Made by a program: the position numbers and the translations under genes
From: Deltaproteobacteria bacterium
Lineage (GTDB): Bacteria; Desulfobacterota; GWC2-55-46
Assembly (NCBI GenBank): GCA_016218105.1
Contig: JACRET010000036.1
Location: 5,304 to 69,303, forward strand
DNA length: 64,000 nucleotides
Reading direction: 5' to 3'
The notes under the pieces: generated by a model
The model's database searches: none
Told to the model about the DNA's origin: nothing
What the model saw: the letters and a program-made list of their open reading frames with translations, nothing else
Shown: piece after piece, positions 18,019-64,000 of the stretch
Position numbering within the stretch: the first letter of the stretch is position 1
Layout of the letters: each line of letters starts with the position of its first letter

Positions 18019-19362
18019 TTAAAAGAAAGTAACGTCGCTCTGCGCGACCCTTGGCGCCTTCGCGTTGGCGCTTTTTTTACTGCCCCCGCCCTGGTTCACG
18101 ATTTCGAGGTGAATGTTTCTCTGCTGCTCCATCACATAATAGCTGTGAATGTCTTCCATATTGAATTCCGGAAGCCTGCACTCCGAGGTGCACAGCTCCG
18201 GCATTGCAAGGCAGTCTTGAAGCCTTCTTATGTAAGCGTCGGTATCTGAAATGGTCCTCATGACAAGCTCAATCTGCTGGCGGACGATATCCTGGAACTG
18301 CACATTGGCAAGCAGATCGGTCACTTCCCTGGCGACCTCATCGCTCCCAAGGCTTACCTGGGCGAGTATCTCCTTATTAAGCGTATCCAGCTCGCCATAG
18401 CTTTTTCCGAGCTTCGCGAGCTGCGCCTCAAGGCTCAGGAGGAGCGTGCCTTCTTCCTTGTTATTGTGCTGGTTGAGCTTTACCGCGAACTTCTCCTCTA
18501 TGTCCTCGGCCATCTGAACCATGGCATGGCCTATCTTTGTGGCGGCCTGCTCGGACTGCGTGGAGAGCTTCCTGACCTCTGAGGCGACTATGGCGAAGCC
18601 TCTTCCGTGTTCGCCCGCCCTTGCCGCTTCTATGGCGGCATTCAACGCAAGCAGATTCGTCTGGTCGCTTATCTCCTTTAAAAGATCGACAAACTTGGTC
18701 ATCGATCGCGCCTTTTCCGCGAGCGCCAGCACCGCCTTATAATCCTTGTCAACCTCTGAAAGGCGTTTTTCCACGTAGTGCCGGAGGGCCGAGATCGTCT
18801 CTTCGTTCGCGGCTATGGTCTCTCCGGAGACTGTGGCGAGGGACTCGCTCTCCTGCTGGAGCTTGAGGAGGGTCTGCTGCATTCCTCCCATTGACCGGTC
18901 TATGGCCTGTGATTGGGAGATGATCATGTTCGCGGCTGAATCGGTTTCTCCTATGATGTTGTTGAGATGTGCCTTTGCCAGCTTGTTTATATCCTGCTGG
19001 GCCTCGAAGTAGCGGCCCACCTTCGCTTCCCTGTTCTGTAAATGCTCGCTGTAAGCCGTAATCTCATCTACCAGTTCTTTTTCCGTCTCCGCTATCCTCA
19101 AAAGAGACCGGCCTGCCGATTTAAAGCTGATGGCCTGCACTATCACGACGGCCGTGATTACCCAAAAAGCGTCTTCCAATGCCCTTGAATATCCCTGTGA
19201 AAAAAAGCGGCTTAAGAAGCCCTGTATGTAATCCCAGAAAAAAAGCTCTATAAAGCCGGGAATAATCAAAGCCAGGGCCGTTGTTGCGAAAAAGATCCGT
19301 TTGTAGGTGGGGATGTAGAGGAAGAGGAAGGAATCGGATCTTCTATTTAGAGTTTCTGCCAT
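18019..19362 (-). CDS. Short membrane-anchored MCP-like protein (two N-terminal TM helices, no periplasmic sensor domain, MCP tip, Cys-containing C-terminus)
   Basis: The TM helices are close together. The tip is [38 protein letters not shown]. The C-terminal region carries [15 protein letters not shown] and [12 protein letters not shown]. It is the first gene of the Che2-like operon. Confidence 0.75.
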
Positions 19363-40699: not shown

Positions 40700-41977
40700 T
40701 CATTTCAACATCGAAAAATCAACGCCGAAGAAGCTTAAAAGGAGCAGGACGTTCAGGGATATTATTATCCCTCCGCATACATATAACAGCAGGTTTTCAA
40801 ACCTTCCGTTCGCGTAGACACCCATCACCTTTCTTGAGCGGGTAAGTATTATCAAAGGAATGATCGTAAGCGGGAGCTGCATGGAGAGTATCACCTGGCT
40901 CCAGATAAGCGCCTTATAGGTATCGCCAAGAAACATGATTATGATTATCGCGGGGACCGCCGTCAGGAAGACACCGCCCCTGAACCAGGTTTTCTGCGGG
41001 TCTATTTCTTTTCCCAGATACCCTGTGAATACAGTCCCGCCGGCCAGACACGCTGTTATTGATGAAGAGATACCCGCGCATATGAGGGCGACGGCGAAGA
41101 CCAGCTCCGCGAGAGTACCCGCGAGCGGGCGCAGCGTTTCAGCCGCCTGGTTGATGTCGGTCACCAAAACCCCGTTTTTAAAAAATACCGCTGCGGCTAC
41201 GATCACCATTGCGCTGTTTATCATCCATCCCGTGCCCATCGCAAGCAGTGTGTCCGTAAATTCATATCTGAGGAGCTGCCTTTTCCTCTCCTCCGTAACC
41301 GCCTTCCAGTTCCGCCTCTGAATGACCTCGGAATGGAGGTAGATATTGTGCGGCATCACCACGGCCCCGAGCATGCCCATGGCGATAAAAATCTCGGACG
41401 AGCTGATCTTTGGCACCACACTCGCCTTTACGGCCTCCCCCCAGTCAGGACTGACAAGATAAAGCTCCAGAAGGTAGCAGAATCCTATTATGGAGACAAA
41501 GGAGATAATAAGGTGCTCTATCTGATCGTATTTCTGAACGGTTACGAGCGAGAGTATGATGAACCCGGCTATTATCGCCGAAACCCGGAGCGGGAGGCCG
41601 AACAGTATGGTAAAACCTATGGCCGCGCCCAAAAATTCGGCGAGCGCGGTAGCTACGCACGCGAGCATTATCGAGCCGCCGAGGAGATAATTGGCCGATT
41701 TCGGGAACCACATCCTGCACGACTCGGCGAGGCAGGTGCCTGTCACAATGCCGAGGTGCGCGGACATGTGCTGGAGGAAGATGAGCATGAGCGTGGAAAG
41801 TGAGATTACCCATAGGAGCGAATAGTTGAACTCGGACCCTCCGGCTATGTTCGTGGCCCAGTTGCCGGGGTCGATGAAGCCGACCGTAACAAGAAAACCG
41901 GGGCCAAGATACCTCAGAAGCTCGACGTTGAATGTCCGTCCAGGCCCGAAAAAGTCCTTTATCGTTTTTGACGCCAT
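40700..41977 (-). CDS. mntH: Nramp family divalent metal (Mn2+/Fe2+) transporter
   Basis: GPGFLVTVGFIDPGNWATNIAGG (the DPGN motif), 11-12 TM helices, and MPHNIYLHSE. Confidence 0.9.
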   Translation of the reverse strand: MASKTIKDFFGPGRTFNVELLRYLGPGFLVTVGFIDPGNWATNIAGGSEFNYSLLWVISLSTLMLIFLQHMSAHLGIVTGTCLAESCRMWFPKSANYLLGGSIMLACVATALAEFLGAAIGFTILFGLPLRVSAIIAGFIILSLVTVQKYDQIEHLIISFVSIIGFCYLLELYLVSPDWGEAVKASVVPKISSSEIFIAMGMLGAVVMPHNIYLHSEVIQRRNWKAVTEERKRQLLRYEFTDTLLAMGTGWMINSAMVIVAAAVFFKNGVLVTDINQAAETLRPLAGTLAELVFAVALICAGISSSITACLAGGTVFTGYLGKEIDPQKTWFRGGVFLTAVPAIIIIMFLGDTYKALIWSQVILSMQLPLTIIPLIILTRSRKVMGVYANGRFENLLLYVCGGIIISLNVLLLLSFFGVDFSMLK

Positions 41978-49659: not shown

Positions 49660-51477
49660 TTGTCTATGGAAAAAAACTTTTCATTCAGGCGGCTCTTCCC
49701 GCCCCTCCTTATACTTCTCGGATTCATCATATATATCAACGCGCTCAGCGCCCCTTTCGTGTATGACGACCGGGGTTATATAACCCATAACGAGGCCATA
49801 AAGGACCTGACGAACTTCCTCGACCTTTCCGGGACAAGGTACATCGGATTTTTGAGCTTCGCCGTAAACTATTACATCAGTGGATATACCCCTTTCGATT
49901 ACCACCTGCTGAACGTGTTGATACATATCGTCAATTCCATCCTGATATTCCAGCTTGTGGCCCTTACCTTCAAAACCCCCCTGCTTAAGGCCGCCGGTAA
50001 AGGGCGCGAGGGGCTCTCTATAGCCTTTGCCGTTTCCGCCATATTCCTTGCGCACCCGGTACAGACGCAGGCCGTAACGTATATAACCCAGCGGTTCACG
50101 TCTTTGGCCACGCTTTTTTATCTGCTCTCGATCTTCCTCTATGTAAAATCAAAGATCTCCATGAAAGAAGGTTCGGGGGGGCTCGGGCCCTGGGTTATCT
50201 ACTCAGGCTCTCTCGTATCCGCCCTTCTCGCCATGAAGACAAAGGAAATAAGCTTCACATTGCCTTTTTTGCTTTTGTTGTACGAGATTGTCTTCTTCGG
50301 CATCGAAAAAGACCGGCGCTCCGTGGCGATGAGGGCGCTATTCTATCTGACCGTCCTGATAATCCCGATTTCGTTAATAGGCCAGGGCGGAGACCATGTC
50401 ACAAGGGCGCTGCGGGATCTGCAGCTTAAGGAGGCTGCGGGCCTGCCGAGAGATATATATGTGTACACCCAGTTCAACGTGATCATGACTTACATAAGGC
50501 TCTTGTTCCTGCCGATAAATCAGAGGATCGACTACGCCTACCCCCTGTCGGATACCCTGTTCGAGCCATATACCTTCGTCTCTTTTCTCATTCTGCTGAC
50601 GCTTTTTGTATCTTCCGTATTCTGGCTCAGGCGGTCTTACATAAAAAAAGACATCTATGGTATTTTCTTCTCTTTTGGCGTCATCTGGTTCTTCATGACA
50701 CTGTCTATAGAGTCCTTTGCCGTTCCCATACAGGACGTGATATTCGAGCACAGGATATATCTGCCGGGCATAGGATTTATAATGTCCGTGGTATCCGTCT
50801 TATTTTATTTCATGTCGTTTCTTGAGAGGCGCATGGGCCTGAAGGTATTTCACCCAGCCGCGATCGCGTCAATAATCATCGTATTGTCCGCGCCCCTTGC
50901 CTACTCGACGCACAGGAGGAATATCGTCTGGGGCGATGAATTGAAATTGCTTGACGAGGCCATAGGTGAAAAAACCGGCAAGTCCAGGCTTTATTACATA
51001 AGGGCTATGGTATATACGGAGAGGGGAGAGTTCGAAATGGCCCTCAAAGACGCTGATTCGGCCGTCCGGCTGAGCCCTCAGTCTGCCGAGATGCACAATA
51101 TCCGGGGTTATGCCTATTCTTCCATCGGAAGACATGAGGAATCGATAAAGGACTTTAACAACGCCTTAACGGCCGACCCCAGGTATTACATGGCCTATTT
51201 TAACCGTGGCCGCTCATATTCGTTCCTTAAAAGATACGATCTCGCTATCGCAGACTATACAAAGGCGATCGAGGTACGCCCGGATTACGGGGGCGCTTAT
51301 AACAACCGCGGCGTAATCTACGCCGAGGTGGGCGATATGGAAAATGCCGGGAAGGACTTGAGCGAGGCTTGCAGGATGAAGCACCTTGAGGCCTGCGATA
51401 ATCTACGGTTCCTTAAGGATTACTTGAAGTCCGGGGGTGAAAAGCTTCCGGGAAAGGCGGAAGGGCGGTATTATTGA
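49660..51477 (+). CDS. Polytopic membrane glycosyltransferase-like protein with C-terminal TPR repeats (TMTC / PMT_2-like), paralog 2
   Basis: FVYDDRGYITHNEAI...FDYHLLNVLIHIVNSIL, many TM helices, and four or more C-terminal TPRs (AYFNRGRSYSFLKRYDLAIADYTKAIEVRPDY...). Confidence 0.7.
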   Translation: MSMEKNFSFRRLFPPLLILLGFIIYINALSAPFVYDDRGYITHNEAIKDLTNFLDLSGTRYIGFLSFAVNYYISGYTPFDYHLLNVLIHIVNSILIFQLVALTFKTPLLKAAGKGREGLSIAFAVSAIFLAHPVQTQAVTYITQRFTSLATLFYLLSIFLYVKSKISMKEGSGGLGPWVIYSGSLVSALLAMKTKEISFTLPFLLLLYEIVFFGIEKDRRSVAMRALFYLTVLIIPISLIGQGGDHVTRALRDLQLKEAAGLPRDIYVYTQFNVIMTYIRLLFLPINQRIDYAYPLSDTLFEPYTFVSFLILLTLFVSSVFWLRRSYIKKDIYGIFFSFGVIWFFMTLSIESFAVPIQDVIFEHRIYLPGIGFIMSVVSVLFYFMSFLERRMGLKVFHPAAIASIIIVLSAPLAYSTHRRNIVWGDELKLLDEAIGEKTGKSRLYYIRAMVYTERGEFEMALKDADSAVRLSPQSAEMHNIRGYAYSSIGRHEESIKDFNNALTADPRYYMAYFNRGRSYSFLKRYDLAIADYTKAIEVRPDYGGAYNNRGVIYAEVGDMENAGKDLSEACRMKHLEACDNLRFLKDYLKSGGEKLPGKAEGRYY

Positions 51478-51659
51478 TGCTCACTGATACCATTGTTCCC
51501 GTTGGCATCATAGGTGTAGGTCAGGGTAGTCCCGTCCCCGTAATCCACGCCGGTCAGGCGGTTTGCGTTGTCGTGGGTATAGGTCGCCGAAAAGGCCGGG
51601 GCGCAGACAAACAGGCTTATCAGAAAGACCAATAGGGAGATATATTTTTTAGAGTTCAT
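51471..51659 (-). CDS. Small secreted peptide (62 aa) containing RHS/YD-repeat motifs
   Basis: MNSKKYISLLVFLISLFVCAPAFSA signal, then TYTHDNANRLTGVDYGDGTTLTYTYDANGN, which fits Y.YD..GRL........G....Y.YD..GN. The 3' end overlaps the convergent TMTC-like gene by 7 nt. Confidence 0.4.
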   Translation of the reverse strand: MNSKKYISLLVFLISLFVCAPAFSATYTHDNANRLTGVDYGDGTTLTYTYDANGNNGISEHQ

Positions 51660-51736
51660 GAATTGCACCTTTAAAGATACATCTGAAAATCATTTGCGCT
51701 CAGTTACAGTCAATGGCTTTGAATATTTTTCGGACA

Positions 51737-51774
51737 GTAGGTGTTGGGTTACGCTCCGCTAACCCAACACCTAC
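51737..51774. repeat. REP hairpin 1
   Basis: GTAGGTGTTGGGTTA-CGCTCCGC-TAACCCAACACCTAC: a perfect 15-bp stem with GTAG at both ends. Confidence 0.85.
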
Positions 51775-51849
51775 CAGACTATAATTCGACATGCAATGTC
51801 ATTATGTTGCCTGTTTTGATGGTGGGCGGTGCACACCCTGATTATCTGT

Positions 51850-52452
51850 CTATTTGTCACCATACTCAACGGCTGCCTTTATCGCCTCCACGATATTTTT
51901 ATGTATTGAATCTTTTTTCTTATTTATTTCCGCGATATCAAAATAAGAATTAAAATTGATAGTATTGCCATTAGGTTCTTCGTAATATCCAACCGTCTCC
52001 ATCTTCCATGTCCCGTCGGTATAAAACTCTAGACCCATGTTAACCTTTGTACCATTTTCTGGCTGAAACTGTATGTCAGTACTAAAATCCGATAAAACCA
52101 GCAATCTATCCTCGTACATACTTGTCCGTATAAAGCTATTAATTTGACCGTCATTTGCGTATCTTTGTCCTCCTATATACTTATAACGCCAAACACCTGG
52201 ATTTTTCTTGAACTGCACACCCGCATCCATAAGCTCTTTGATTTTTTTAGCAACCACCTTTGTTAATTCGTCAATGCATCGATCCATTGCTTTCTGTTTT
52301 TCCGCCTTGGTAACTTCTTTCTTCCTTTCGTTGGCGGCATTGGTTTTTTGCTGTTTTATAATATCTTCTGCATTGGAACTGAATGCTGCAATAGGAGAAA
52401 TCAGGTTAATACGATTATTAAGACGAATATTCTCATTGGAAGTTCTCCACAA
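51850..52452 (-). CDS. Hypothetical protein in an AT-rich region, bracketed by inverted REPs
   Basis: A 200-codon ORF from a TTG. The first ATG is at codon 56 (MDRCIDEL..., 52287). I recognise no motif. The N-terminus is Lys/Glu-rich and the C-terminal half looks beta-rich. Confidence 0.45.
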   Translation of the reverse strand: MWRTSNENIRLNNRINLISPIAAFSSNAEDIIKQQKTNAANERKKEVTKAEKQKAMDRCIDELTKVVAKKIKELMDAGVQFKKNPGVWRYKYIGGQRYANDGQINSFIRTSMYEDRLLVLSDFSTDIQFQPENGTKVNMGLEFYTDGTWKMETVGYYEEPNGNTINFNSYFDIAEINKKKDSIHKNIVEAIKAAVEYGDK

Positions 52453-52472
52453 TACGATTAATTGAGAGCCAC

Positions 52473-52507
52473 GTAGGTTGGGTTAGCGAAGCGTAACCCA
52501 ACAAACC
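52473..52507. repeat. REP hairpin 2 (opposite orientation to REP1 and REP3)
   Basis: GTAGGTTGGGTTA-GCGAAGCG-TAACCCAAC. It abuts the stop codon of the RAYT gene. Confidence 0.85.
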
Positions 52508-53050
52508 TTATTCATGCCCGATATTGCCTTCAAACTCGATCTCGCTCTCCGCGCTCCAATCAATAGCGTAAAGGCCATCTTTTACATATCGATGAAAGCT
52601 TGAGTAAGGCCACTCTTTGGGCGACTTTACCAGCCCGTGTTTCACAGGATTATAATGAATATAATCAACGTGTCTTATAAAATCATCTTCATTCACAATC
52701 GTGTGTTCCCAAAAACGGCGTTGCCAAACCGCCTGTTCGCCACTTTTTACCCTTGAAGCCGTCTGCGGGTTTTTATATTTATTGTGACAGCCCTTTGTGA
52801 AGCACGTTTTAAAGAGCCTCCATCTCGTCGAGAAGTCGTTGTCGTTTTCAGGCAATGTCCAGATACAATGTATATGGTACGGCAACAGAACGAATGCATC
52901 CATCATAAAGGGGCGTTGGGTCATTACACGTTTAAACGCCTCTTTTATGAGCAGCACATTGGCCTTGCGGCACAAAATCTTTTTTCTTCCGTGCGTGACC
53001 ACAGTAAAGAAAAATGTCGCACCTTTTGCTTTCGACCTGCGATATTGCAT
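52508..53050 (-). mobile_element. REP-associated tyrosine transposase (RAYT; IS200/IS605-type Y1 HUH transposase)
   Basis: 180 aa; FFTVVTHGRKK, the HUH motif LLPYHIHCIW, WQRRFWEH, and the catalytic Tyr region YIHYNPVKHGLV. It is flanked on both sides by inverted REP hairpins. Confidence 0.85.
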
Positions 53051-53060
53051 CTCTTCTATT

Positions 53061-53099
53061 GTGTTGGGTTACGCTCCGCTAACCCAACCTACCAGACTA
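53061..53099. repeat. REP hairpin 3
   Basis: GTGTTGGGTTA-CGCTCCGC-TAACCCAAC-CTACCAGACTA, with the same loop and 3' tail as REP1. Confidence 0.85.
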
Positions 53100-53158
53100 A
53101 CGCAGGCTCCTCTACACCAAATACAGCCCTCTTTTTTGTCTTGACGATGGGGATAGCT

Positions 53159-54037
53159 TTAAGCAAAACATCTGTGCCTGCCATGAAACCAGAATGTCTG
53201 AGTTATTATAAATTTTAAAAAATCGTAATCTTCCGGTTTGAATTTATGGTGTGTAACAAAAATCTTATTAAAAGCACTTTTGTTTAAATTTTCCCACTCA
53301 CCATTCTCGCGATTTCCAAACAGCTCGGACCAAGTTTTTTCAACCTTTTTGAATCCATATGTTTTGTTTTTACCATCAAACCCTTGGAGTCCAATTTTAT
53401 TGAGCGTCTTGGCAATTTGAGAGTCGATCACAAAAGACTTTCCATTCACATTTGTTAAAGCCCATAAGGCAAGCTTGTCACCGACACCGTTAATTTTATT
53501 TTCTTTTCCTTGAAAATTTTTTTGAAAAAATTGTTCATTATTATCAAACATATCAATCATGCTGCAGATAGTTGTGTCACATTTCCATTTATGAATTTTA
53601 TCTACTATCGAAAAAAGTACCATCAAACCGCCGAGCCAGAAGCGACCAGGAACTGTGTCGTATAATCTTTTAAAATCGACATCTTCTAAAAGTGTTTTAA
53701 AATTTTTGCTATTTTCAGTATCAGCTAGAAAACTATCGTAAGCTGATTTTCTATTCAGTTTAGCTTCCTTATAAGAGTTAAGTAGTGCCGCGATACAGCG
53801 CACATTCTGTTTTTCCATTCTTATTTTTATTAGAGTTTTTTTTAGATTTTTATTATTTTCTCGAAATAATTGAATCTCCTCATCGCTAGTTGCCCTATCT
53901 AAAAATGCTGTCAGGAAATAATGGTCGTGGTCTGCATTTTTATCTTTTAAACGTTCATCGAGCTGATGTTTCACATGATACGCAATAATTTGTTTTTCAG
54001 GGTCATGTGGCAGATATACCATCTCCACATCAAGCAT
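53159..54037 (-). CDS. Hypothetical AT-rich orphan protein with an HhH-GPD (endonuclease III / glycosylase)-like C-terminal half
   Basis: INGVGDKLALWALTNVNGKSFVIDSQIAKTLNKIGL parallels the EndoIII segment [37 protein letters not shown], with the HhH, the Lys and the Asp in register. The C-terminal FWFHGRHRCFA parallels LILHGRYTC, but the protein stops before any Fe-S cluster loop. Confidence 0.4.
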   Translation of the reverse strand: MLDVEMVYLPHDPEKQIIAYHVKHQLDERLKDKNADHDHYFLTAFLDRATSDEEIQLFRENNKNLKKTLIKIRMEKQNVRCIAALLNSYKEAKLNRKSAYDSFLADTENSKNFKTLLEDVDFKRLYDTVPGRFWLGGLMVLFSIVDKIHKWKCDTTICSMIDMFDNNEQFFQKNFQGKENKINGVGDKLALWALTNVNGKSFVIDSQIAKTLNKIGLQGFDGKNKTYGFKKVEKTWSELFGNRENGEWENLNKSAFNKIFVTHHKFKPEDYDFLKFIITQTFWFHGRHRCFA

Positions 54038-54175: not shown

Positions 54176-54263
54176 TGGTGCCCGAGGCCGGACTCGAACC
54201 GGCACGGCTTTGAGGGCCGCGGGATTTTAAGTCCCGTGCGTCTACCAATTCCGCCACTCGGGC
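54176..54263 (-). tRNA. tRNA-Leu (anticodon UAA) with encoded CCA
   Basis: The reverse complement is GCCCGAGTGGCGGAATTGGTAGACGCACGGGACTTAAAATCCCGCGGCCCTCAAAGCCGTGCCGGTTCGAGTCCGGCCTCGGGCACCA. It has a 7-bp acceptor stem, anticodon loop CT-TAA-AA, a long variable arm and a GGTTCGAGTCC T-loop. Confidence 0.92.
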
Positions 54264-54471: not shown

Positions 54472-54499
54472 TTGACAATTGTGGTTTCATTGTTATAAT
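54472..54499 (+). promoter_or_regulatory. Near-consensus sigma70 promoter for the cytochrome-porin gene
   Basis: TTGACA, a 16-nt spacer, then TATAAT. It lies about 100 nt upstream of the ATG at 54603. Confidence 0.55.
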
Positions 54500-54602
54500 T
54501 ACGGAAAATCGGCAAAGGAGGATGCCCTTTAAAGGCCGACCTTTCCCTTTCGGGTTTTTTCTGTTTTTAAAAAGGCTGCAAACTAATATCAAAGGAGGTT
54601 GT

Positions 54603-55841
54603 ATGAGTAGAAAATTAATTTATGCTGTGGCCATGGTTTTTTTCTTCGCGTTCTCTGTATTCGCGACCCGCGAGGCCTCAGCAGTACCAGCTTTTGCAAG
54701 GCAGACCGGCATGGCCTGTAATTCATGTCACTTCCAGCACTTCCCAACGTTGAATGCCTTTGGTCGCGCCTTCAAGGAAGGCGGGTACACCCAGATCGGC
54801 GGACAGAGCCTTATAGAAGGCGACTACCTTTCCCTGCCCGTCAATCTCAATGCATCGCTGGTTACGAAGATCAGATACCAGAAGAGAAATGGGGATAGCG
54901 AAACCGGCAGCGCAGGCAATCTCAATAAAGGCGAATTTCAGTTCCCTGACGAAGCCGCTCTCTTGATCGGCGGACGCGCAGGCGAACATATCGGCTTCCT
55001 CCTTGAAGCTTCGCTTAAGGACGGCGACAGCCGCTTTACATCTTTCAAGGCTCCTATCGTATTCGACACAATGGGCGTGAAACTCAGCGCCATACCTTTT
55101 ACAACTGATTCAGCCGGACCGTCATACGGTTTTGAACTTTTAAACACCGGCGCCGTAAGGATGGATCGCATCCTTGAGCACAGGACTCAGACCTCAGCCC
55201 AGCAGTACATAGGCACGGACGGCGCGGCCACAGGCGCTTCCTTTGTAGCCTCAAAGGGAATCGGTTATGTCAACTATACGCTCTGGTATCCTGAGCACGG
55301 TGATGCGGCCGCAGGGCCGTTCTTGAATTACCTCAGGGTAGCGGCGACACCGACGATAGCCGGTTGGGATATCGGCGGCGGTTTCCAGCTCTGGAACGGA
55401 ACATCAAAGATAGGCAATGGCGCAGCCGCCACACAGGAGAGGGCTGACGCATGGGCCATAGACGCGCAGGCTCAGGGCACAGTCGGAACCTTACCGATAG
55501 GCGTTTATTTTACTTACGCTAACGCTGCCAAGTCAGACGCGAGTGAGATCGAAAACAGGTACAACGCCTCAACAGTAGACGATAAGACCGCATGGACCAT
55601 CCTCGGTGAAGTCGGCGTAATCCCGAACAGGCTTACGCTCGCGGCAGCGTATCGCTCCGGGAAAAATGGCGACCCCAACGACAACGGCCAGGACAGCGAC
55701 AACGCCACAACAGTCGGCGCTGTTTACAATGCCACACAGAACCTCCAGGTTCATGTCAACCACTCATTCCTCTCTGGTGACGTGACAACTGACGCGAGCG
55801 GCGATCAGCTTACAACAGTAATGCTCTTCGCAGCGTTCTAA
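54603..55841 (+). CDS. Cyc2/Cyt572-like fused monoheme cytochrome c - outer-membrane beta-barrel protein
   Basis: Start at the ATG at 54603 (AAAGGAGG RBS). The signal peptide ends ASA. It is followed immediately by VPAFARQTGMACNSCHFQHFPTLNAFGRAFKEGGY, which carries the protein's only CXXCH (54717-54731). The remaining ~370 aa are Gly/aromatic-rich with alternating beta-strand pattern and contain no other Cys. The C-terminus is an aromatic residue (...MLFAAF). Confidence 0.6.
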   Translation: MSRKLIYAVAMVFFFAFSVFATREASAVPAFARQTGMACNSCHFQHFPTLNAFGRAFKEGGYTQIGGQSLIEGDYLSLPVNLNASLVTKIRYQKRNGDSETGSAGNLNKGEFQFPDEAALLIGGRAGEHIGFLLEASLKDGDSRFTSFKAPIVFDTMGVKLSAIPFTTDSAGPSYGFELLNTGAVRMDRILEHRTQTSAQQYIGTDGAATGASFVASKGIGYVNYTLWYPEHGDAAAGPFLNYLRVAATPTIAGWDIGGGFQLWNGTSKIGNGAAATQERADAWAIDAQAQGTVGTLPIGVYFTYANAAKSDASEIENRYNASTVDDKTAWTILGEVGVIPNRLTLAAAYRSGKNGDPNDNGQDSDNATTVGAVYNATQNLQVHVNHSFLSGDVTTDASGDQLTTVMLFAAF

Positions 55842-55860
55842 GACTCTAGCAGAACGGTTC

Positions 55861-55894
55861 AAAGGGAGGGTTTAAACAACCCTCCCTTTTTTTA
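55861..55894 (+). terminator. Rho-independent terminator after the cytochrome-porin gene
   Basis: AAAGGGAGGGTT-TAAAC-AACCCTCCCTTT followed by a T-run. Confidence 0.85.
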
Positions 55895-55958
55895 TTTCCA
55901 CGAAAAGGCTTCTCCCCCTGCCCTCAAAAACCATAGCGGGTTCGAGCGCTCTGTGGCT

Positions 55959-56999
55959 TCAGACATTCTCAATTTTCTCTTCTATCCAAAGGCCATTTTG
56001 CGCGGCTTCCGGGGCGGACTCAGCTGATGCGGCGACGTCAGGGAGCCCGAATATCATGCTTCCATCTGAGGCTGTCCCTATCCTTGCCAGATTGATGATT
56101 AGAAGGCCGACTCTCCGGCCTGCAAAGGGAGGATTTTTCCCATCTATTGCATGGTCCAGATCGAACGCAAACCTGAAATCCTTTAACTCGTCTATTGAGC
56201 CCGCGTAATTCGCGATGAGAGGGTCAAGCTCGAAACCCTTCCCGCAGAGGGCGCCGCCGGTTTCTGACGCGAGGTTCAGCACGAGCCTGAACCTAAGGCA
56301 ATGGCCGCCTGCGGTCCTTATAATGCCTGATGACGTCAGTTTGACCGGCTCAGGATTGGAATAACGTTTACCCAGGAGGTAACAGCTGTCGTCGTCCTCG
56401 CCATCCTTCTCAGAGGGCTCTTGCCGCTGCTCATCATCGTCTTTCTTCTTTCTAAAGCCCGCCCTGCTCTTTCTCCAGTAAAGCTTTAAAAACCTTAACC
56501 TCAAACCGGGAAGTATTTCATTAAGCAGCGTCATCAGAAAAGGGGCGCCAGCGGCTTGGGGTAAATCTATCTGCCGGGGCGCGCTTGCCTCCTGGGGAGA
56601 CACTGACTTGAGAATGGATTTAAGATCCTTGAAAAGCGTTACGGCATCGATCTCTTCGGATTCCAACTTATTAAGAAGAGCAACCAAACCCGCCTCCCCC
56701 TTCAAAATCCTTTCCTTAAGGAGGGCACTGATCAGGGTCTTTAGCGAATCTTGGGATATAGCCGGTTGAGTGGGAGGGGGTGTCTCTGAGGAAGACAAAT
56801 ATTTAAGAACTGACTTAAGCTCTTTGGAGAGCGTAACGACATCGGCAACTCCGAGCCTGAGGATATCAGCATTACCGGCACTGACATCGCTGACTGGACG
56901 GTTTCCGGTTTTCTGTACCTTCAAGCCCGGCTCACCCTTGGCCGCCTCTTCGTTGACGCAAGGCTTACTTAAGGGTATTTTAGTATCTGGCACCTGCAT
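55959..56999 (-). CDS. Hypothetical protein (346 aa) with an internal repeat and an acidic/basic linker
   Basis: VVTLSKELKSVLKYLSS and AVTLFKDLKSILKSVSP repeat. The central segment is RKKKDDDEQRQEPSEKDGEDDD. I recognise no family for the C-terminal ~150 aa. Confidence 0.5.
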   Translation of the reverse strand: MQVPDTKIPLSKPCVNEEAAKGEPGLKVQKTGNRPVSDVSAGNADILRLGVADVVTLSKELKSVLKYLSSSETPPPTQPAISQDSLKTLISALLKERILKGEAGLVALLNKLESEEIDAVTLFKDLKSILKSVSPQEASAPRQIDLPQAAGAPFLMTLLNEILPGLRLRFLKLYWRKSRAGFRKKKDDDEQRQEPSEKDGEDDDSCYLLGKRYSNPEPVKLTSSGIIRTAGGHCLRFRLVLNLASETGGALCGKGFELDPLIANYAGSIDELKDFRFAFDLDHAIDGKNPPFAGRRVGLLIINLARIGTASDGSMIFGLPDVAASAESAPEAAQNGLWIEEKIENV

Positions 57000-57050: not shown

Positions 57051-57121
57051 CGGCGCTCGCAAGCCGTTCGACTCCCAAATTAGCTTTTCTGATCAACTCT
57101 GGCGGAAGGGGGAGGGAGTCG
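57051..57121. repeat. Duplicate of the tRNA-Sec 3' end (23 nt) plus about 48 nt of its downstream flank
   Basis: CGGCGCTCGCAAGCCGTTCGACTCCCAAATTAGCTTTTCTGATCAACTCTGGCGGAAGGGGGAGGGAGTCG is repeated at 57209..57280 with two substitutions and one indel. The sequences diverge after GAGTCG. Confidence 0.85.
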
Positions 57122-57258
57122 GTTTCCGATCGTAGGCTTCCTGCCTCCTCTCTCCAGCCCCTGTCTTTCTCGCTTCCGGGCGCATCCTGCGCCCTAATCC
57201 TCGCCAGCTCGGCGCTCGCAAGCCGTTCGACTCCCAAATTAGCTTTGGTGATCAACTC

Positions 57259-57354
57259 TGGCGGAAGGGGGAGGGAGTCGAACCCCCCGATCCCCGAAAT
57301 CGGCGACAGACAGGTTTTGAAGACCTGCAGGGCCACCGGGCCCTGTCCCCTTCC
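57259..57354 (-). tRNA. selC: tRNA-Sec (selC), anticodon UCA
   Basis: The reverse complement is GGAAGGGGACAGGGCCCGGTGGCCCTGCAGGTCTTCAAAACCTGTCTGTCGCCGATTTCGGGGATCGGGGGGTTCGACTCCCTCCCCCTTCCGCCA. It has an 8-bp acceptor stem, a 6-bp D stem, anticodon loop CT-TCA-AA, a long extra arm and discriminator G + CCA, totalling 96 nt. Confidence 0.9.
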
Positions 57355-58156: not shown

Positions 58157-59035
58157 TTACTTCTCTTCCGACTCTGGTCTGGTCTTCCATCTCCTGTGCA
58201 CCCAGAACCATTGCTCTGGATATTTCCTTATAGTGTCCTCTATCACCTTCGTGCATCTCCGCGTGTTCTCTTCCGAGTCACGCTCCTTGTCGCCTGTATT
58301 TACGAGCCTTATCTCTTCCTGTATCTCGATGCGGTGGCCTTTGTCTGTCCTTATCATAAATACCGGAACGACGGGCGCTCCGCTTGCGACGGCCAGAAGC
58401 GCCGGCCCTTTATTGGTGCAGGCCGGGGTCCCGAAAAAGTCCACGAACACGCCTTCGCTTCTCGTTACGTTCTGATCCATGAGGATCATAACCAGTCCTT
58501 TTTCCGACAGCCTCGTGAGGAGTTTGCGCATCGCCCTCCTCTTGTATATCATATTATTGCCGGAGCTCTTAGTCCTCACCCAGTATATGAACTCCTCAAA
58601 CACGGGATTGTCCGCCTCCCTTACTACGAGGTCTATCGTATAACCCTTTATCCCGAAGTATACCGCTTGAAGCTCCCAGTTCCCGAAGTGGGCGGTGCAT
58701 AAGATCACGCCCTTCCCTCTGGAAGCGGCCTTTTTAAGGTTTTCAAGGCCGACGCACTCTACAAACCCATCAACCTTTTTTCTGTTTAGCCACGGGATGG
58801 AGAGGAACTCAAAAAACATTACAGCGAGGTTTGAAAATAATTTTTTACCGGCGCGCTCTATCTCCGCAGGCGTGAGTTTCCCTTTAAAAGCCCTGTTCAG
58901 ATTATCCAGGGCAATATTCCTTCTCTTCTTGTCGATACGAAAGGCGAGCGCGCCTAAAAGAGCGCCCAGGAACTTCTGTAAGGCGCGCGGAAGATTCCCC
59001 AGTATAAAGGATAGAGACTTAAGGAGACTACGCAT
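58157..59035 (-). CDS. lpxL: Lipid A biosynthesis (Kdo2-lipid IVA) late acyltransferase, LpxL/HtrB family
   Basis: The LCTAHFGNWEL (HX4E) motif, and a C-terminal PEQWFWVHRRWK. The ATG at 59035 is preferred; the track starts at a TTG at 59074. It overlaps the lpxK stop. Confidence 0.8.
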   Translation of the reverse strand: MRSLLKSLSFILGNLPRALQKFLGALLGALAFRIDKKRRNIALDNLNRAFKGKLTPAEIERAGKKLFSNLAVMFFEFLSIPWLNRKKVDGFVECVGLENLKKAASRGKGVILCTAHFGNWELQAVYFGIKGYTIDLVVREADNPVFEEFIYWVRTKSSGNNMIYKRRAMRKLLTRLSEKGLVMILMDQNVTRSEGVFVDFFGTPACTNKGPALLAVASGAPVVPVFMIRTDKGHRIEIQEEIRLVNTGDKERDSEENTRRCTKVIEDTIRKYPEQWFWVHRRWKTRPESEEK

Positions 59036-60101
59036 CACCCGCCCCCTTAAGCAGAGGGTTGACAGCATTCTCAAGCGCCTCTTTTCCTTTTACTTCCACA
59101 TCTATCGAGAGGACATACAAAGGGAGCGTCTGCACACGGCCCTTTAGCTTCACCCCGTCCTTTTCAGTCGTGATGATAAGCTCCGCCTCAAGGAACCCTT
59201 TTTTTATCGAATCGATGTCCTCATTAGTGTAGAGATGATGGTCTGGATAAGTAAACGCCTTTACGAGCTTTACGCCGAGGGATTTAAGTGTCTCAAAAAA
59301 GGAGCCAGGGTTCGCGATACCCGCTATCGCGATGGCTTTTTTCCCCTTCAGGTAACCGGCGTCCTTCGAGGCGTTGGTCTTTATGTCGGTTATGACAGAC
59401 GGGCTGTAACTGAACGGTATCACAGGAACGGATTGGATCTTCGATCTTTCATCCGAAGTAAGATGCCCGCCTTTCACCATCACTATCGACGCCCTCTCAA
59501 TCCCTTCCAGCGGCTCTCTCAGGACACCCCTGGGGAGAAGATAGCCGTTCCCAAACCCCTCCTCAGCATCGACCAGGAGGATATTCAGATCCCTTTTGAG
59601 CTTTATATGCTGGTATCCGTCATCGAGTATGATGACGTCCGGGTTGAAATTCTCGACCGCGAACATACCGCTTAAATACCTGTCAGACCCTACAATCACA
59701 GGCACATCCTTAAGCCTTTTTGCCATGAGATAGGGCTCGTCCCCGGCTTCCTGCGCGCTTAAAAGGATCTTCTGCCCGTCAGATACGACGCTTATGTCCC
59801 TTGTGCTTCTTTTATAGCCTCTGCTGAGTATCACGACCCTGTTATTTCTTTTTCTGATGAGCCCGGCGACGTGAATCGCCATCGGCGTTTTTCCGGTGCC
59901 GCCGACCGTGATATTGCCTATCGAGATGACCTTGCAGGGCAGTTCTTTCGTTGACAGGAAACCCCGTTTAAACAAAAAAAGCCTAAGTTTTATTGCCAGG
60001 CCATATAGAAGAGAAAGAAGAAAGAGCAAGTTATGCGGAACAAGCCCGATCTTATCCTCGCGCATCCACCTCTCTATATTTTTTCTTAAAGTACCGGCCA
60101 T
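59028..60101 (-). CDS. lpxK: Tetraacyldisaccharide 4'-kinase
   Basis: VISIGNITVGGTGKTP P-loop, SRGY, and ILDDGYQH. Confidence 0.9.
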   Translation of the reverse strand: MAGTLRKNIERWMREDKIGLVPHNLLFLLSLLYGLAIKLRLFLFKRGFLSTKELPCKVISIGNITVGGTGKTPMAIHVAGLIRKRNNRVVILSRGYKRSTRDISVVSDGQKILLSAQEAGDEPYLMAKRLKDVPVIVGSDRYLSGMFAVENFNPDVIILDDGYQHIKLKRDLNILLVDAEEGFGNGYLLPRGVLREPLEGIERASIVMVKGGHLTSDERSKIQSVPVIPFSYSPSVITDIKTNASKDAGYLKGKKAIAIAGIANPGSFFETLKSLGVKLVKAFTYPDHHLYTNEDIDSIKKGFLEAELIITTEKDGVKLKGRVQTLPLYVLSIDVEVKGKEALENAVNPLLKGAGDA

Positions 60102-60125
60102 CTTCCCTTTTAAAAATCGCTTTAT

Positions 60126-61436
60126 TTAAATAACCGCGTTTTTGCTTTTTGCCTTGTTCAGAAATACCTCTATCGCTTCAACGCTCTTCCTAGCGGCTCC
60201 CCTGTTGGCCTCGACGACTTTCCAGGCGCTCTCTCCCGCCTCTTTGCAAAGGGCCGCGTCAGAAAGGAGTTTTTCAAGCGTACCCTTTAACCCGTCCACG
60301 CCCTCCGCCCTGAAACCTCCTCCGGCGCCCTCAAGAAGCTCCGCCATATTCAAATATGCCGTCAGGTGCGGGCCGTAGATAACGGGCTTCCCATAATACG
60401 CCGGTTCCAGGAGATTATGGCCGCCGATGCCTTTTACAAGGCTGCCTCCTACAAACGCGACCGTAGCGAATGAATATACCATCATAAGCTCGCCGACCGT
60501 ATCGAGGAGGACTATCCCTTCACCGCCATTCCCTTTCGAGCGCTTCGAATAAGGGAGCCCTGATCTTCTCAACAACGCCTCTACTTCAGCGAACCTCTCA
60601 GGGTGCCTCGGCGCTAGTATCAGTCTTGTATTTTTAAATTCGCCCCGGAGCCCCTTGAAGGCATTCAGTATCATCTCCTCTTCTCCGGGGTGGGTGGAGC
60701 CCGCGACTATCACCGCCTCTTTGGGGTTTATTCCTAAAGACGCCCCAAGCGGCGTCAGTGAGGACTGGCGGCCATCCGGCGGGCTCAGGTCGAATTTGAT
60801 ATTGCCGGTGGCCACAGCGTTACTATCCTTGACCCCCGCACAAACGGCCTTTTCCCTGTCCTCTTTTGTGCGCGCTGAAAAGAGGCTCACACCCCCGAAG
60901 ACGCCCTTAAAAAAGAACCCATACCTTGCAAACCGCCTGGACGACCTGTCTGAAATTGTCCCGTTAAGGACGATTACAGGCACGCCTTTCTTATTCATTT
61001 GCCTGAAGATGTTCGGCCATATTTCCTTTTCTATCACTATGAAAGCCTTGGGGTTAAAGAGCCTTATCGCCTTGTTCACCACCCACGAAAGATCGAGCGG
61101 AAAATATATAAGCGCGTCGATAAGTCCGGTCAGGTCTTTTGCCGCGGTATTATTGCCTGTCCTGGTGACTGTTGAAAAAACCACCCTTGTATCGGGGTTT
61201 CTCTCCTTAAAGAGCTTGACTACAGGCGCGGCCGCCTTTGTCTCTCCGACGGAGACCGCGTGTATCCACACCACTGGCCCGCCTGAGAGCGCCTTTAGTT
61301 TGGCGGCCTTATAAAAGCCGAACCGCTCCGGAATGCCTTCCCTGTATTTACGGGCGGTAATCATCTTAAATACAAAATAAGGGAGCAGCGCGATAACTGA
61401 AATATGGAGCAGGATATCGTAGAGGCGATATATCAT
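60126..61436 (-). CDS. waaA: 3-deoxy-D-manno-octulosonic acid (Kdo) transferase
   Basis: VWIHAVSVGE, a C-terminal GT-B half (GGSL...GGHNLLEP) and an N-terminal membrane anchor. Confidence 0.9.
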   Translation of the reverse strand: MIYRLYDILLHISVIALLPYFVFKMITARKYREGIPERFGFYKAAKLKALSGGPVVWIHAVSVGETKAAAPVVKLFKERNPDTRVVFSTVTRTGNNTAAKDLTGLIDALIYFPLDLSWVVNKAIRLFNPKAFIVIEKEIWPNIFRQMNKKGVPVIVLNGTISDRSSRRFARYGFFFKGVFGGVSLFSARTKEDREKAVCAGVKDSNAVATGNIKFDLSPPDGRQSSLTPLGASLGINPKEAVIVAGSTHPGEEEMILNAFKGLRGEFKNTRLILAPRHPERFAEVEALLRRSGLPYSKRSKGNGGEGIVLLDTVGELMMVYSFATVAFVGGSLVKGIGGHNLLEPAYYGKPVIYGPHLTAYLNMAELLEGAGGGFRAEGVDGLKGTLEKLLSDAALCKEAGESAWKVVEANRGAARKSVEAIEVFLNKAKSKNAVI

Positions 61437-61515
61437 TTAAGGGAGTTTACATTTATTTTTTTAAAGTCTGCGCGGATTGCTCTGAAAAAAAGCGCGGCTG
61501 TTTGACGCAAACTCT

Positions 61516-61544
61516 ATACTACATTTTGTCTAAATCATAGTCAA
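61516..61544 (-). promoter_or_regulatory. Candidate sigma70-type promoter for waaA-lpxK-lpxL (minus strand)
   Basis: On the minus strand: TTGACT, a 17-nt spacer, then TAGTAT. Confidence 0.3.
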
Positions 61545-61584
61545 GTTTTGAGGGGATATTTCAGAAAGGACACAAGGACGAAGA

Positions 61585-62238
61585 TCAGAAGAAGCTGTCC
61601 GCCTTCGCGGTAAGCTCATTCAAGCTATTTTCAAGCTTTTGCCGCGCCTCTTCCATCTCAGCGGAGCCGGCGTCAGCTTTTACATACAATGGGTCTCCGC
61701 AGATAAATACGCCTTTCGAAAATGGATAGGGCAGGAGGAAAGAGTCCCAGCTCCCGAATATTTTTTTTTTCGAGGCGTTAAACGATATGGGAAAGACGGG
61801 AAGGCCTGTCGCCCTGGCTATGTGTATAGCCCCCATCTGCGCCTTCATCCCTGGCCCTTTCGGCCCGTCAGGCGTCAGGGCGAGGTCTCTGCCTTCCCGG
61901 ACGGACTTCAAGAGCCCCCTGATGCCGCCGAGCGAGCCCCTTGTGGTAGAGCCCCTCACTGATTCGATCCCGAAGCCTTTGAAGACCCTCCTTATAAGCT
62001 CGCCGTCTTTGCTCTGGCTTATAAGCCCTGTAAGCCGCCTGCCAGGATACGCGTAGGGCACCATAAGGAGCCTTCCGTGCCAGAAGACCGAGATCGTCTG
62101 CTTGCCGCTGTCTGTCATCGAGCGGTATGCTTCGTAGTTTACATAGGTCTTTCTCATTGTAAGGGACAGGAACCTTATTATCCATTGGGCAAGTACGGGG
62201 GCAAGGTTTACGAGGAGGCTATCTAATATCTTTTTCAT
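61585..62238 (-). CDS. DUF374-type lysophospholipid-acyltransferase-like protein
   Basis: ISVFWHGRLLMVPY...SQSKDGELI...VRGSTTRG...LTPDGPKGP. It sits between msbA and waaA. Confidence 0.65.
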   Translation of the reverse strand: MKKILDSLLVNLAPVLAQWIIRFLSLTMRKTYVNYEAYRSMTDSGKQTISVFWHGRLLMVPYAYPGRRLTGLISQSKDGELIRRVFKGFGIESVRGSTTRGSLGGIRGLLKSVREGRDLALTPDGPKGPGMKAQMGAIHIARATGLPVFPISFNASKKKIFGSWDSFLLPYPFSKGVFICGDPLYVKADAGSAEMEEARQKLENSLNELTAKADSFF

Positions 62239-62249
62239 AGGATTGGGGC

Positions 62250-64000
62250 TTACCCATTAAACTGCATGGAATAAAGGCGAGAGTATTCGCCTCCCTTGTC
62301 AAGGAGGTCCTCGTGCCTGCCGATCTCCTTTATCGCTCCGCCCGACAGGACGATTATCCGGTCGGCGTTCCTTACGGTCGAAAGCCTGTGGGCAATAACG
62401 AAAGTGGTGCGTCCTTCCATGAGGTTCGAGATCGCCTTTTGCACCTCATGCTCGGATTCGGTATCCAGGGCAGAGGTCGCCTCGTCCAGGATCAGTATCG
62501 GCGCATTTTTAAATATGGCCCTTGCTATCGACAGCCTCTGCCTCTCTCCGCCTGAGAGCCTCACTCCGCCTTCGCCTATGACAGTGTCATAGCCCTGCGG
62601 AAGCCTTGAGACGAAATCATGCGCATTGGCCGCCTTTGCCGCGGCGACGATCCTGTTCATGTCCATCTCCGTGTCCCCGTAGCCGATATTCTTTTTTACG
62701 GTATCATTAAAGAGTATCACCTGCTGGGAGACTATCGCTATCTGTGAGCGCAGGGAATTGAGCGTCAGCTCCCTGATGTCTTTTCCGTCGAATAGTATCG
62801 AACCCTCCGCGACATCGTAGAATCTCGGTATCAGGTTTACGAAGGTAGTCTTGCCGGCCCCGGAGCTCCCGACGATCGCGAGCACTTCGCCCTTCCCGAC
62901 CCTCAGGTCTATACCCTTGAGCACCAGCTCTCCGCCGTACTTGAAGGTCACGCCCTTGAACTCGACCGAATCGTTTACGCCTGTAATTACCGCTCCCCCG
63001 CCCTTCTTCTCCGTCTCGCCGGGCATATCCATTACGTCGAATATGCGGGTCGCGGCGGCAAGCCCCTGCTGGATATTGAGGTTCACCCCGTTAAGAGCCT
63101 TTATGGGCTGGTAGAACATTAGCACAGAGGCGAAGAACGAAATGAATATCTCGGGCTTGAGCGTGCCGTGGCTTATCCTGTATGCGGCGAACCATATGGT
63201 CACGGCGAACCCTACCGCTCCAAGCGTCTCCATGAGCGGCGATGATATGGAGCGCACCTTTATCGTCTTTATCTGGTTTTGCGTATACCTTTCGTTTTCC
63301 TTTTGGAACCTCTTGGACTCATAGCCTTCCATGCTGAACGCCTTGACGATCCTTATCCCGGCTATCGATTCGTGGAGGAGCGCCGTGATGGTGCCCATCG
63401 TAACCTGCCCCTGCGTGGATACCTTTTTCATCTTCTTGCCCAGTTTTCTCATCGGATAGACGGATAAAGGGAGGGCGATGCCAGCCGCGAGCGCGAGCTT
63501 CCAGTCCAGGCTTATCACGACCCCTGCGAGGACTATGATTGTGAGGCTCTGCTTTAGCGTAGTCGCTATCGCCTCGGAGGTGGTGGATTGAAGCAGGTTT
63601 ACGTCGTTGGTAAGCCGTGATATCAGAACCCCTGTCGGGGTCGTGGTAAAATAGTTCACCGGGAGGCACAGGACATGGTCATACAGGCGCTTCCTTATGT
63701 CGCGCACAACGCTTTGCCCGACGTAGCCCATGAAAAAAGATTGCCCGTAAGAGCTGATCCCCTTTACGACCGCCACGACTATGAGCGCGAGCGGTATCGC
63801 TATTATCATCTTTTCCTTTGGGATGACAAAAAGGTCGAGCGGGATTATCTTTATAACGGAGTCGGAATCGTTTGAAAAGAGGAACTTCATCACCGGGCCG
63901 ATAAGATAGGCCATCGCCCCGTTCGCAAGCGCGAACCCCACCATGGAGACGAACGCCATGATCAACTGGAACTTATACGGCGGCAGCAGTTTTAATATTC
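62250..64000 (-). CDS. msbA: Lipid A export ABC transporter MsbA (permease + ATPase); the N-terminus runs off the right edge
   Basis: Six-TM domain, Walker A GSSGAGKTT, signature LSGGERQR and Walker B ILILDEATS. The reading frame stays open upstream of the track start (..ILKLLPPYKFQLIMAF) to the window end. Confidence 0.88.
   Translation of the reverse strand, partial: ILKLLPPYKFQLIMAFVSMVGFALANGAMAYLIGPVMKFLFSNDSDSVIKIIPLDLFVIPKEKMIIAIPLALIVVAVVKGISSYGQSFFMGYVGQSVVRDIRKRLYDHVLCLPVNYFTTTPTGVLISRLTNDVNLLQSTTSEAIATTLKQSLTIIVLAGVVISLDWKLALAAGIALPLSVYPMRKLGKKMKKVSTQGQVTMGTITALLHESIAGIRIVKAFSMEGYESKRFQKENERYTQNQIKTIKVRSISSPLMETLGAVGFAVTIWFAAYRISHGTLKPEIFISFFASVLMFYQPIKALNGVNLNIQQGLAAATRIFDVMDMPGETEKKGGGAVITGVNDSVEFKGVTFKYGGELVLKGIDLRVGKGEVLAIVGSSGAGKTTFVNLIPRFYDVAEGSILFDGKDIRELTLNSLRSQIAIVSQQVILFNDTVKKNIGYGDTEMDMNRIVAAAKAANAHDFVSRLPQGYDTVIGEGGVRLSGGERQRLSIARAIFKNAPILILDEATSALDTESEHEVQKAISNLMEGRTTFVIAHRLSTVRNADRIIVLSGGAIKEIGRHEDLLDKGGEYSRLYSMQFNG

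Follow-up and report, generated by a model that had tools for sequence, protein, structure and literature searches.

Does an uncultured deltaproteobacterial lineage encode a Cyc2-type outer-membrane iron oxidase, and is the gene set up to be expressed on its own? Both questions are raised by a single gene within a 64-kb stretch of contig JACRET010000036.1 (the window, meaning the whole stretch analysed; positions are counted from its first letter). The gene lies on the plus strand at 54603–55841, including the stop codon, and was delimited by its open reading frame (ORF), translation and homology; its predicted product is a 412-residue fused monohaem cytochrome c–porin precursor. Judged from sequence, it clearly belongs to the Cyc2 family, although it carries no annotation as such. 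The protein is very probably a Cluster 1-type Cyc2 of the outer membrane that joins a one-haem segment of about 55 residues to a 16-strand barrel, with the oxidation of Fe2+ as its most likely function.

Family membership, cluster placement and predicted fold

The window protein was compared with the definition of Cyc2 given by Keffer et al. 2021 (PMC8406198). That definition comprises a signal peptide, one CXXCH with a PXL four residues beyond it, the upstream motif AXPXFAR[Q/K][T/Y] (described there as exclusive to Cyc2), a length of at least 365 residues, a 16-strand OprO/OprP-like barrel and similarity to Cyc2 at a blastp E of 1e-5 or below, and every one of the published sequence features is found in the window protein. 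The signal peptide (residues 1–27, 54603–54683) was judged by inspection: a basic n-region and a hydrophobic core lead up to an AxA-type cleavage motif (ASA before V), so that the precursor begins with MSRKLIYAVAMVFFFAFSVFATREASA and the predicted mature protein with VPAFARQTGMACNSCHFQHFPTL. This layout is kept across the family, and AlphaFold2 models a helix at residues 3–18. The haem-binding (cytochrome) segment (residues 28–82, 54684–54848) is marked by AVPAFARQT (27–35), with R33 five residues before C39, by CNSCH (39–43; DNA 54717–54731) near the N-terminus, by PTL (48–50) in the order H43-FQHF-PTL, and by an NAFGRAFK helix. The remainder of the 412 residues (83–412, 54849–55838) is predicted by AlphaFold2 and Foldseek to form a 16-strand outer-membrane beta-barrel with short periplasmic turns and a C-terminal beta-signal (...LFAAF), the protein ending in ...MLFAAF with phenylalanine as the last residue. 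C39 and C42, both within the single CXXCH, are the only cysteines. With full-length homology added to these features and the porin-barrel model, the preliminary description of this DNA, which had proposed a Cyc2-family cytochrome–porin fusion with one CXXCH, no further cysteine and a barrel ending in Phe, is borne out.

Within an alignment of 35 homologues, conservation is highest in the haem segment, where R33, C39, C42, H43 and P48 are invariant down to 28% identity, and a single CXXCH is present in all 74 of the full-length homologues from genomes. No histidine or methionine other than H43 is invariant among the 35: H46 (54738–54740) is found in 63% and M407 (55821–55823) in 66%. Since only H43 is invariant, a sixth haem ligand is not obvious from conservation.

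Searches of Pfam, NCBIfam and PDB sequences with the window protein returned no matches, and the family profile, run against PDB, matched only OmpT at E = 0.1, so that profile comparison detected no solved structure for any family member. Relatives are nevertheless abundant: a collection of 5.8 billion proteins holds 1765 homologues, the best 75% identical, and a representative protein library gave 1964 matches. They are mostly named 'hypothetical protein' and come from metagenome-assembled genomes (MAGs) labelled Deltaproteobacteria, Thermodesulfobacteriota, Nitrospirae or Methylomirabilis; a few match Pfam Porin_4. More than 1,700 homologues carrying the Cyc2 motif (P0002–P0120 among those listed) bear the hypothetical label, and one is named 'OprO/OprP family phosphate-selective porin'. 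Standard annotation misses these relatives of Cyc2 because they are labelled hypothetical and have neither a Pfam nor an NCBIfam model.

In 185,579 species genomes scanned, 582 relative loci were confirmed (cited below by L numbers where needed), including Gallionellaceae and Zetaproteobacteria, and the loci from named members of these two groups served as reference Cyc2. Loci in MAGs of Deltaproteobacteria, Thermodesulfobacteriota and Nitrospirae encode proteins 49–67% identical to the window protein. The Gallionellaceae (Sideroxydans, Gallionella and Ca. Ferrigenium straubiae KS) are 38–46% identical, with Sideroxydans and Gallionella at 41–46%, and blastp aligns strain KS at 39% over residues 8–412 (E 2e-89). 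Cyc2 of Zetaproteobacteria, Mariprofundaceae and Ghiorsea is 30–33% identical (blastp E 1e-35 to 1e-43). The N-terminal motif is common to all these iron-oxidiser and MAG relatives. The profile check suggested in the preliminary description was run with a surrogate built from Gallionellaceae and Zetaproteobacteria only, against which the window protein reaches 457 bits (E 1e-138) across hidden Markov model positions 3–416 of 416. A profile from Zetaproteobacteria only gives 235 bits, and no other ORF of the window scores against either profile.

In a neighbour-joining tree (midpoint-rooted, without bootstrap and without Cluster 2 or 3 sequences), the window protein falls in a Deltaproteobacteria/Thermodesulfobacteriota/Nitrospirae clade between the Gallionellaceae and Rhodocyclales clades, with the Zetaproteobacteria outermost. 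Cluster 1 unites Cyc2 of Zetaproteobacteria, Gallionellaceae and Chlorobi. In Fig. S7 of PMC8406198, which places strain KS in Cluster 1, identities between Zetaproteobacteria and Gallionellaceae within that cluster are 26–30%, and those between clusters approximately 17–23%. Because the 38–46% identity to Gallionellaceae exceeds the 17–23% seen between clusters, and because the protein nests among these clades in the tree, its sequence is taken to be of the Cluster 1 (neutrophilic) type, set apart from Clusters 2 and 3 by the published identities.

Neutrophilic Cluster 1 proteins (Mariprofundus ferrooxydans PV-1, Sideroxydans, Gallionella, Ca. Ferrigenium) share with the window protein the signal peptide, the AXPXFAR[Q/K][T/Y]-CXXCH-PXL arrangement, a length of about 400 residues and an OprP-like barrel, and its identities to the Gallionellaceae and Zetaproteobacteria are at least as high as those between these two groups. 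Unlike the known Cluster 1 hosts, the organism belongs to an uncultured 'Deltaproteobacteria/Thermodesulfobacteriota'-type lineage that is not a recognised iron oxidiser. A close precedent is Ca. Ferristratum (phylum DTB120; PMC8114936), likewise an uncultured Desulfobacterota-related lineage with a Cluster 1 Cyc2. According to the published description, the nearest neighbours of its Cyc2 are Gallionellaceae rather than Zetaproteobacteria, as for the window protein. Ca. Ferristratum comes from marine vent mats and carries narGH, whereas the relatives of the window are groundwater and aquifer MAGs with a cbb3 oxidase gene near cyc2. The preliminary description had named Acidithiobacillus Cyc2 and Leptospirillum Cyt572 as models. 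The family assignment holds, but the window protein belongs with the neutrophilic Cluster 1 Cyc2 of the Gallionellaceae and Zetaproteobacteria type and, judged by the published identities between clusters, not with these two. A. ferrooxidans Cyc2 and Cyt572, the latter with an unusual haem that gives a 572-nm band, have the same overall architecture and the same defining haem motif but represent the other two Cyc2 clusters, at approximately 17–23% identity to Cluster 1 (PMC8406198), and below 20% where Cyt572 is concerned. The A. ferrooxidans gene heads a cyc2-cyc1-cup-cox-rus operon, whereas the window cyc2 is solitary. Clades of Deltaproteobacteria, Lambdaproteobacteria and Nitrospirae are already present in published Cyc2 trees, and the window gene extends the known Cyc2 pattern without revealing a new mechanism.

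The structure prediction called for in the preliminary description gave a porin barrel. AlphaFold2, run with a 35-sequence alignment, returned a model with a mean predicted local distance difference test (pLDDT) score of 84 and a predicted template modelling score of 0.82, most of the barrel scoring above 90. Its DSSP string (rather than the coordinates) parses into 16 long strands between residues 83 and 411. Turns of 2–4 residues alternate with longer loops, a 40-residue loop (169–208) joins strands 5 and 6, and both termini lie on the same side, as in the classical porin topology. The best Foldseek matches were PorB, OmpT, OmpF and OprP (2o4v), all of them 16-strand porins (E 1e-9 to 1e-11), with template modelling (TM) scores of 0.45–0.54 and OprP at 0.54; OprP is also the template reported for Cyc2 (PMC8406198). 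These porins (OprO/OprP, OmpF, PorB, OmpT) share the barrel fold but just 11–14% identity, with no significant sequence match and no N-terminal haem segment. The MtoAB, PioAB and MtrAB systems likewise carry electrons over the outer membrane in iron redox chemistry. They differ in having two components, a 26-strand barrel and a separate decahaem cytochrome able to reach solid minerals, whereas the window protein is one polypeptide with one haem site and 16 strands, and the window has no multihaem ORF.

Promoter, leader and terminator

A sigma-70-type promoter lies upstream of the gene at 54472–54499 (plus strand), with a −35 hexamer TTGACA (54472–54477), a 16-nt spacer ending in TG-n (an extended −10) and a −10 hexamer TATAAT (54494–54499). 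The hexamers match the consensus at 12 of 12 positions. Four promoter-like sites were found in the surrounding 2.2-kb region, compared with 1.8 ± 1.6 in shuffled sequences, and this is the sole perfect one. The exact TTGACA-N16-TATAAT, positioned 103–122 nt before the ATG, is shared by the window with nine relative loci (L001, L002, L003, L005, L081, L083, L085, L086 and L087), and the TG of the extended −10 is present in most of them. A variant, TTGACA-N16-TATTAT, is found 62 nt before the ATG in L008, and near-consensus variants occur in L004, L006, L007 and L010. Sequence around the conserved promoter has otherwise diverged among the relatives. Because the promoter is kept amid such diverged surroundings, it and the leader of about 100 nt are phylogenetically supported.

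The predicted 5′ untranslated leader, its start placed from the position of the −10 hexamer, is about 97 nt long (54506–54602, plus strand), and its length is conserved in relatives. In order, it contains a Shine–Dalgarno (SD)-like AAAGGAGG (54514–54521), a palindrome CCTTTAAAGG (54526–54535), a CCC/GGG stem (54545–54554), T-runs (54555–54568) and a ribosome-binding site (RBS) AAAGGAGG (54591–54598), which ends 4 nt before the ATG at 54603. The 5′ part of the leader, with the SD-like AAAGGAGG and then CCTTTAAAGG, is conserved in L085–L087. The SD-like element sits approximately 8 nt from the predicted transcript start, and is kept in L001, L003, L004 and L006 as well as in L085–L087. A CCCTTAAAGG element is kept in L083 and L085–L087. 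No consistent start codon follows the conserved SD-like element among the relatives; this 5′ part could be a 5′ stabiliser, a protein-binding site or an operator.

Two other translation starts were considered and rejected. An ORF starting at TTG 54462 is merely an in-frame upstream extension of the coding sequence from 54603. The in-frame ATG at 54522 directly adjoins the SD-like AAAGGAGG and might have been an alternative start or opened a leader peptide. Against it speak the lack of any spacer between the two, the absence of a consistent start codon at this place in relatives, and a signal peptide that starts with M1 of the 54603 frame.

Downstream, an intrinsic terminator occupies 55861–55896 (plus strand), with the hairpin at 55861–55889. 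Its 12-bp stem AAAGGGAGGGTT/AACCCTCCCTTT encloses a 5-nt loop and leads into a T-run; the folding energy is −19.2 kcal/mol (z = −4.67), which none of 200 shuffled sequences reached. A GGGAGGG...CCCTCCC hairpin with a T-run also follows cyc2 in L001, L002, L004–L006, L012, L081, L083 and L085–L087. Promoter, leader length and terminator had all been picked out in the preliminary description, and all three are supported both in the window and by their conservation in relatives.

The same description had suggested that a hairpin with a T-run in the leader (about 54527–54560) acts as an attenuator, and this part did not stand, as the stem is weak and the T-run is not conserved. A transcriptional attenuator gating cyc2 expression would agree with the U-rich tract that follows a small stem in the window leader, with the T-rich tracts in the leaders of L001 and L002, with the constant leader length, and with the response of cyc2 expression to Fe(II) in other organisms (literature including PMC8114936). 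The stem, however, is a 3-bp CCC/GGG pairing of −3.1 kcal/mol (z −0.98) at which the terminator scan made no call, and the leader as a whole folds no better than shuffled sequences (z +1.12). In L083, L086 and L087 the T-run reads GGTTTC or GATTTC. Sub-segments of the leader also folded only weakly. For the five closest leaders RNAalifold returned −6.6 kcal/mol and a covariation term of +0.6, indicating no conserved structure, and no Rfam family, including riboswitches, matches the leader. An attenuator is therefore very unlikely, and the leader is most simply a long 5′ untranslated region typical of the mRNA of an abundant outer-membrane protein. The consensus promoter, the leader of about 100 nt, the strong RBS and the terminator together predict high, autonomous expression. 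Promoter, long leader and terminator fit an abundant outer-membrane protein, and fit the reports that place cyc2 among the most highly expressed genes of iron oxidisers.

Partner genes, mechanism and rival explanations

In many proteobacterial loci dihaem ORFs directly follow cyc2, but this is not so in the window's clade. In the window itself no dihaem Cyc1-like gene follows, and no c-type cytochrome gene adjoins cyc2 to form a cyc2–cyc1 module. The preliminary description had noted the lack of a partner periplasmic cytochrome, and this was confirmed, as no other ORF of at least 60 residues in the 64-kb window contains a CXXCH. Among the relatives, a ccoN gene (cbb3 subunit I; TIGR00780, 731 bits) lies near cyc2 at 1–1274 in L083/L084 and at 3–2042 in L085. 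In L083–L085, whose Cyc2 proteins are 71–75% identical to that of the window, ccoN and an Rrf2-family regulator gene are located approximately 8.5 kb upstream of cyc2; this ccoN region is not syntenic in the window.

A second neighbour is found in nearly all members of the Deltaproteobacteria/Thermodesulfobacteriota/Nitrospirae/Nitrospinota clade, where a PEGA-lipoprotein gene lies just past the cyc2 terminator on the same strand. Examples are L001 (9338–10282), L085 (11224–12066), L083 (11307–12152), L086 (2790–3635), L087 (1664–2521), L016 (1760–2647) and L014 (10909–11874), and there are others. The encoded proteins, of about 280–315 residues, carry a lipobox (L-x-G-C) and, at the C-terminus, a PF08308 domain. 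In Rhodocyclales and Burkholderiales, cyc2 is followed by two dihaem cytochrome genes and sometimes a monohaem one, and the PEGA gene comes last. No paper in the literature searched links Cyc2 with a PEGA domain; the pairing, seen in relatives and absent from the window, is possibly the only unreported element here. The corresponding slot in the window holds a minus-strand ORF of 346 residues (55959–56999) with internal repeats VTLSKELKSVLKYLS and VTLFKDLKSILKSVS, which matches no Pfam or NCBIfam family and has no counterpart at the loci of relatives. The statement in the preliminary description that the gene is monocistronic is accordingly correct for this window but does not describe its close relatives. 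Because nearly all of these carry the downstream PEGA gene, the solitary cyc2 is a derived feature.

By analogy with Cyc2 studied elsewhere (PMC8406198, PMC7029218), the protein would be exported by the Sec pathway and receive its haem in the periplasm. The barrel would then insert into the outer membrane, and the haem domain would sit at its periplasmic mouth. Dissolved Fe2+ would enter the narrow pore and be oxidised by the haem, and a soluble carrier in the periplasm would take the electron to a terminal reductase. A microaerobic, cbb3-type acceptor is suggested by the relatives, and nitrate by the precedent of Ca. Ferristratum, in which Fe(II) oxidation has been proposed to be coupled to an anaerobic or microaerobic acceptor and the Cluster 1 Cyc2 is co-expressed with narG upon Fe(II) addition (PMC8114936). 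Given the cbb3 gene of the relatives and the use of nitrate in Ca. Ferristratum, the most likely physiology, by analogy, would be microaerobic or nitrate-dependent Fe(II) oxidation.

Several observations weigh against this reading. Besides lacking a periplasmic cytochrome, the window encodes no cbb3 or aa3 oxidase, nitrate reductase or other respiratory gene, and the electron path is unanchored there because no respiratory partner is encoded. No PEGA homologue occurs anywhere in the 64 kb, which could mean a degenerate or re-purposed system. Residues 18–45, which include the haem site, have a pLDDT below 50, as expected because the model lacks haem. Cyc2 homologues also occur in many organisms not known as iron oxidisers, and other functions have been left open for them (PMC8406198). 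The protein might thus be a true Cyc2 homologue that carries out no energy-yielding Fe(II) oxidation in this lineage and serves instead in Fe(II) detoxification, as a redox-sensing valve, with another dissolved donor or acceptor, or in the reductive direction. The absent respiratory partners, the loss of the otherwise conserved PEGA neighbour and the spread of Cyc2 among other organisms would agree with such a role, as would the rampant horizontal transfer and low clade fidelity of the published tree. An Nramp importer gene and many chemotaxis genes in the window point to the handling or sensing of metals but are no proof of lithotrophy. On the other hand, function is best generalised for Cluster 1, in which approximately 55% of the sequences come from known iron-oxidising bacteria and the PV-1 protein has been tested (PMC8406198): it oxidises Fe(II) in vitro, with a midpoint potential of approximately +208 mV. 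The residues defining the haem site are conserved without exception, the clade-wide consensus promoter implies a heavy investment in expression, and cbb3 is close by in relatives. A non-lithotrophic role is consequently considered possible but unlikely.

A further alternative is an ordinary substrate-specific porin of the OprO/OprP kind, with an incidental CXXCH and no bound haem. The name given to one homologue, the few Porin_4 matches, the plain porins among the best structural hits and the lack of any cytochrome match in Pfam or NCBIfam all point that way. What decides against it is the N-terminal segment, since PxFARQT, CXXCH and PxL are invariant or nearly so in the 35 and the 74 homologues, across several phyla, and form the most conserved part of the protein. 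The same motif defines Cyc2 proteins that have been haem-stained experimentally (PMC8406198), and dihaem cytochrome genes follow the gene in many relatives. A plain porin is extremely improbable, and a Cluster 1-type Cyc2 oxidising Fe2+ is retained as the preferred reading.

Genomic setting and significance

As the preliminary description had placed it, the gene sits between an AT-rich islet with tRNA-Leu on one side and tRNA-Sec on the other. The upstream neighbour is tRNA-Leu(taa) (54176–54263, minus strand), and the same tRNA gene is upstream of cyc2 in L001, L002, L003, L005 and L009. Downstream are tRNA-Sec (57259–57354, minus strand) and then an lpxL-lpxK-kdtA-DUF374-msbA cluster (58157–63965, minus strand). 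The order tRNA-Leu, cyc2, tRNA-Sec, lipid A cluster is kept in L001, L002 and L005; in L081 and L083, too, cyc2 is followed by the lipid A cluster. An upstream B12-radical-SAM gene is 79% identical to one beside cyc2 in L085. The conserved gene order and the radical-SAM neighbour indicate that cyc2 was vertically inherited in this lineage, and the lipid A/lipopolysaccharide pathway indicates that the host is diderm, with an outer membrane.

The AT-rich islet spans 52–54 kb, with a GC fraction of 0.38 compared with about 0.50–0.54 elsewhere. Relative to L085, the region 49660–54037, between the B12-radical-SAM gene and tRNA-Leu, is an insertion made up of a tetratricopeptide repeat (TPR) protein gene and the islet. 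The islet encodes a REP-associated tyrosine transposase (REP, repetitive extragenic palindrome; 52508–53050; NF047646, 188 bits), and two of its ORFs (51850–52452 and 53159–54037) have no family match. A 71-nt direct repeat (57051–57121 and 57210–57280) has copies 97% identical and 159 nt apart, the second of which spans the 3′ 22 nt of tRNA-Sec together with the next 49 nt. The repeat may represent a small tandem duplication or an integration scar at the tRNA. Further away, two complete CheA-CheW-MCP-CheR-CheD-CheB chemotaxis sets are arranged back to back at 675–19362 (minus strand) with an extra methyl-accepting chemotaxis protein (MCP) gene, and a PilJ-type MCP (38939–40672) is followed by the Nramp divalent-metal transporter (40700–41977). 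CorA, trehalose and glycine-cleavage genes are also encoded, in addition to the B12-radical-SAM enzyme.

Cyc2 itself is well described, and a Cluster 1 Cyc2 has already been reported in Ca. Ferristratum (PMC8114936). The pairing of cyc2 with a PEGA gene in the relatives is the only element that might extend the model of the Cyc2 pathway. A speculative and rather doubtful extension is that the groundwater Deltaproteobacteria/Thermodesulfobacteriota/Nitrospirae clade consists of unrecognised neutrophilic Fe(II) oxidisers that use Cyc2 together with an undescribed accessory outer-membrane PEGA lipoprotein, and that the window genome has lost this partner. If so, the genome would exemplify a system in decay or, alternatively, a mode of action independent of PEGA. 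Genomic and metatranscriptomic surveys recognise neutrophilic iron oxidation mainly by cyc2. With its Cluster 1 Cyc2 and conserved consensus promoter, this aquifer 'deltaproteobacterial' lineage becomes a further candidate iron oxidiser, which could be either microaerobic, by way of cbb3, or nitrate-dependent, and would bear on iron cycling in the subsurface.

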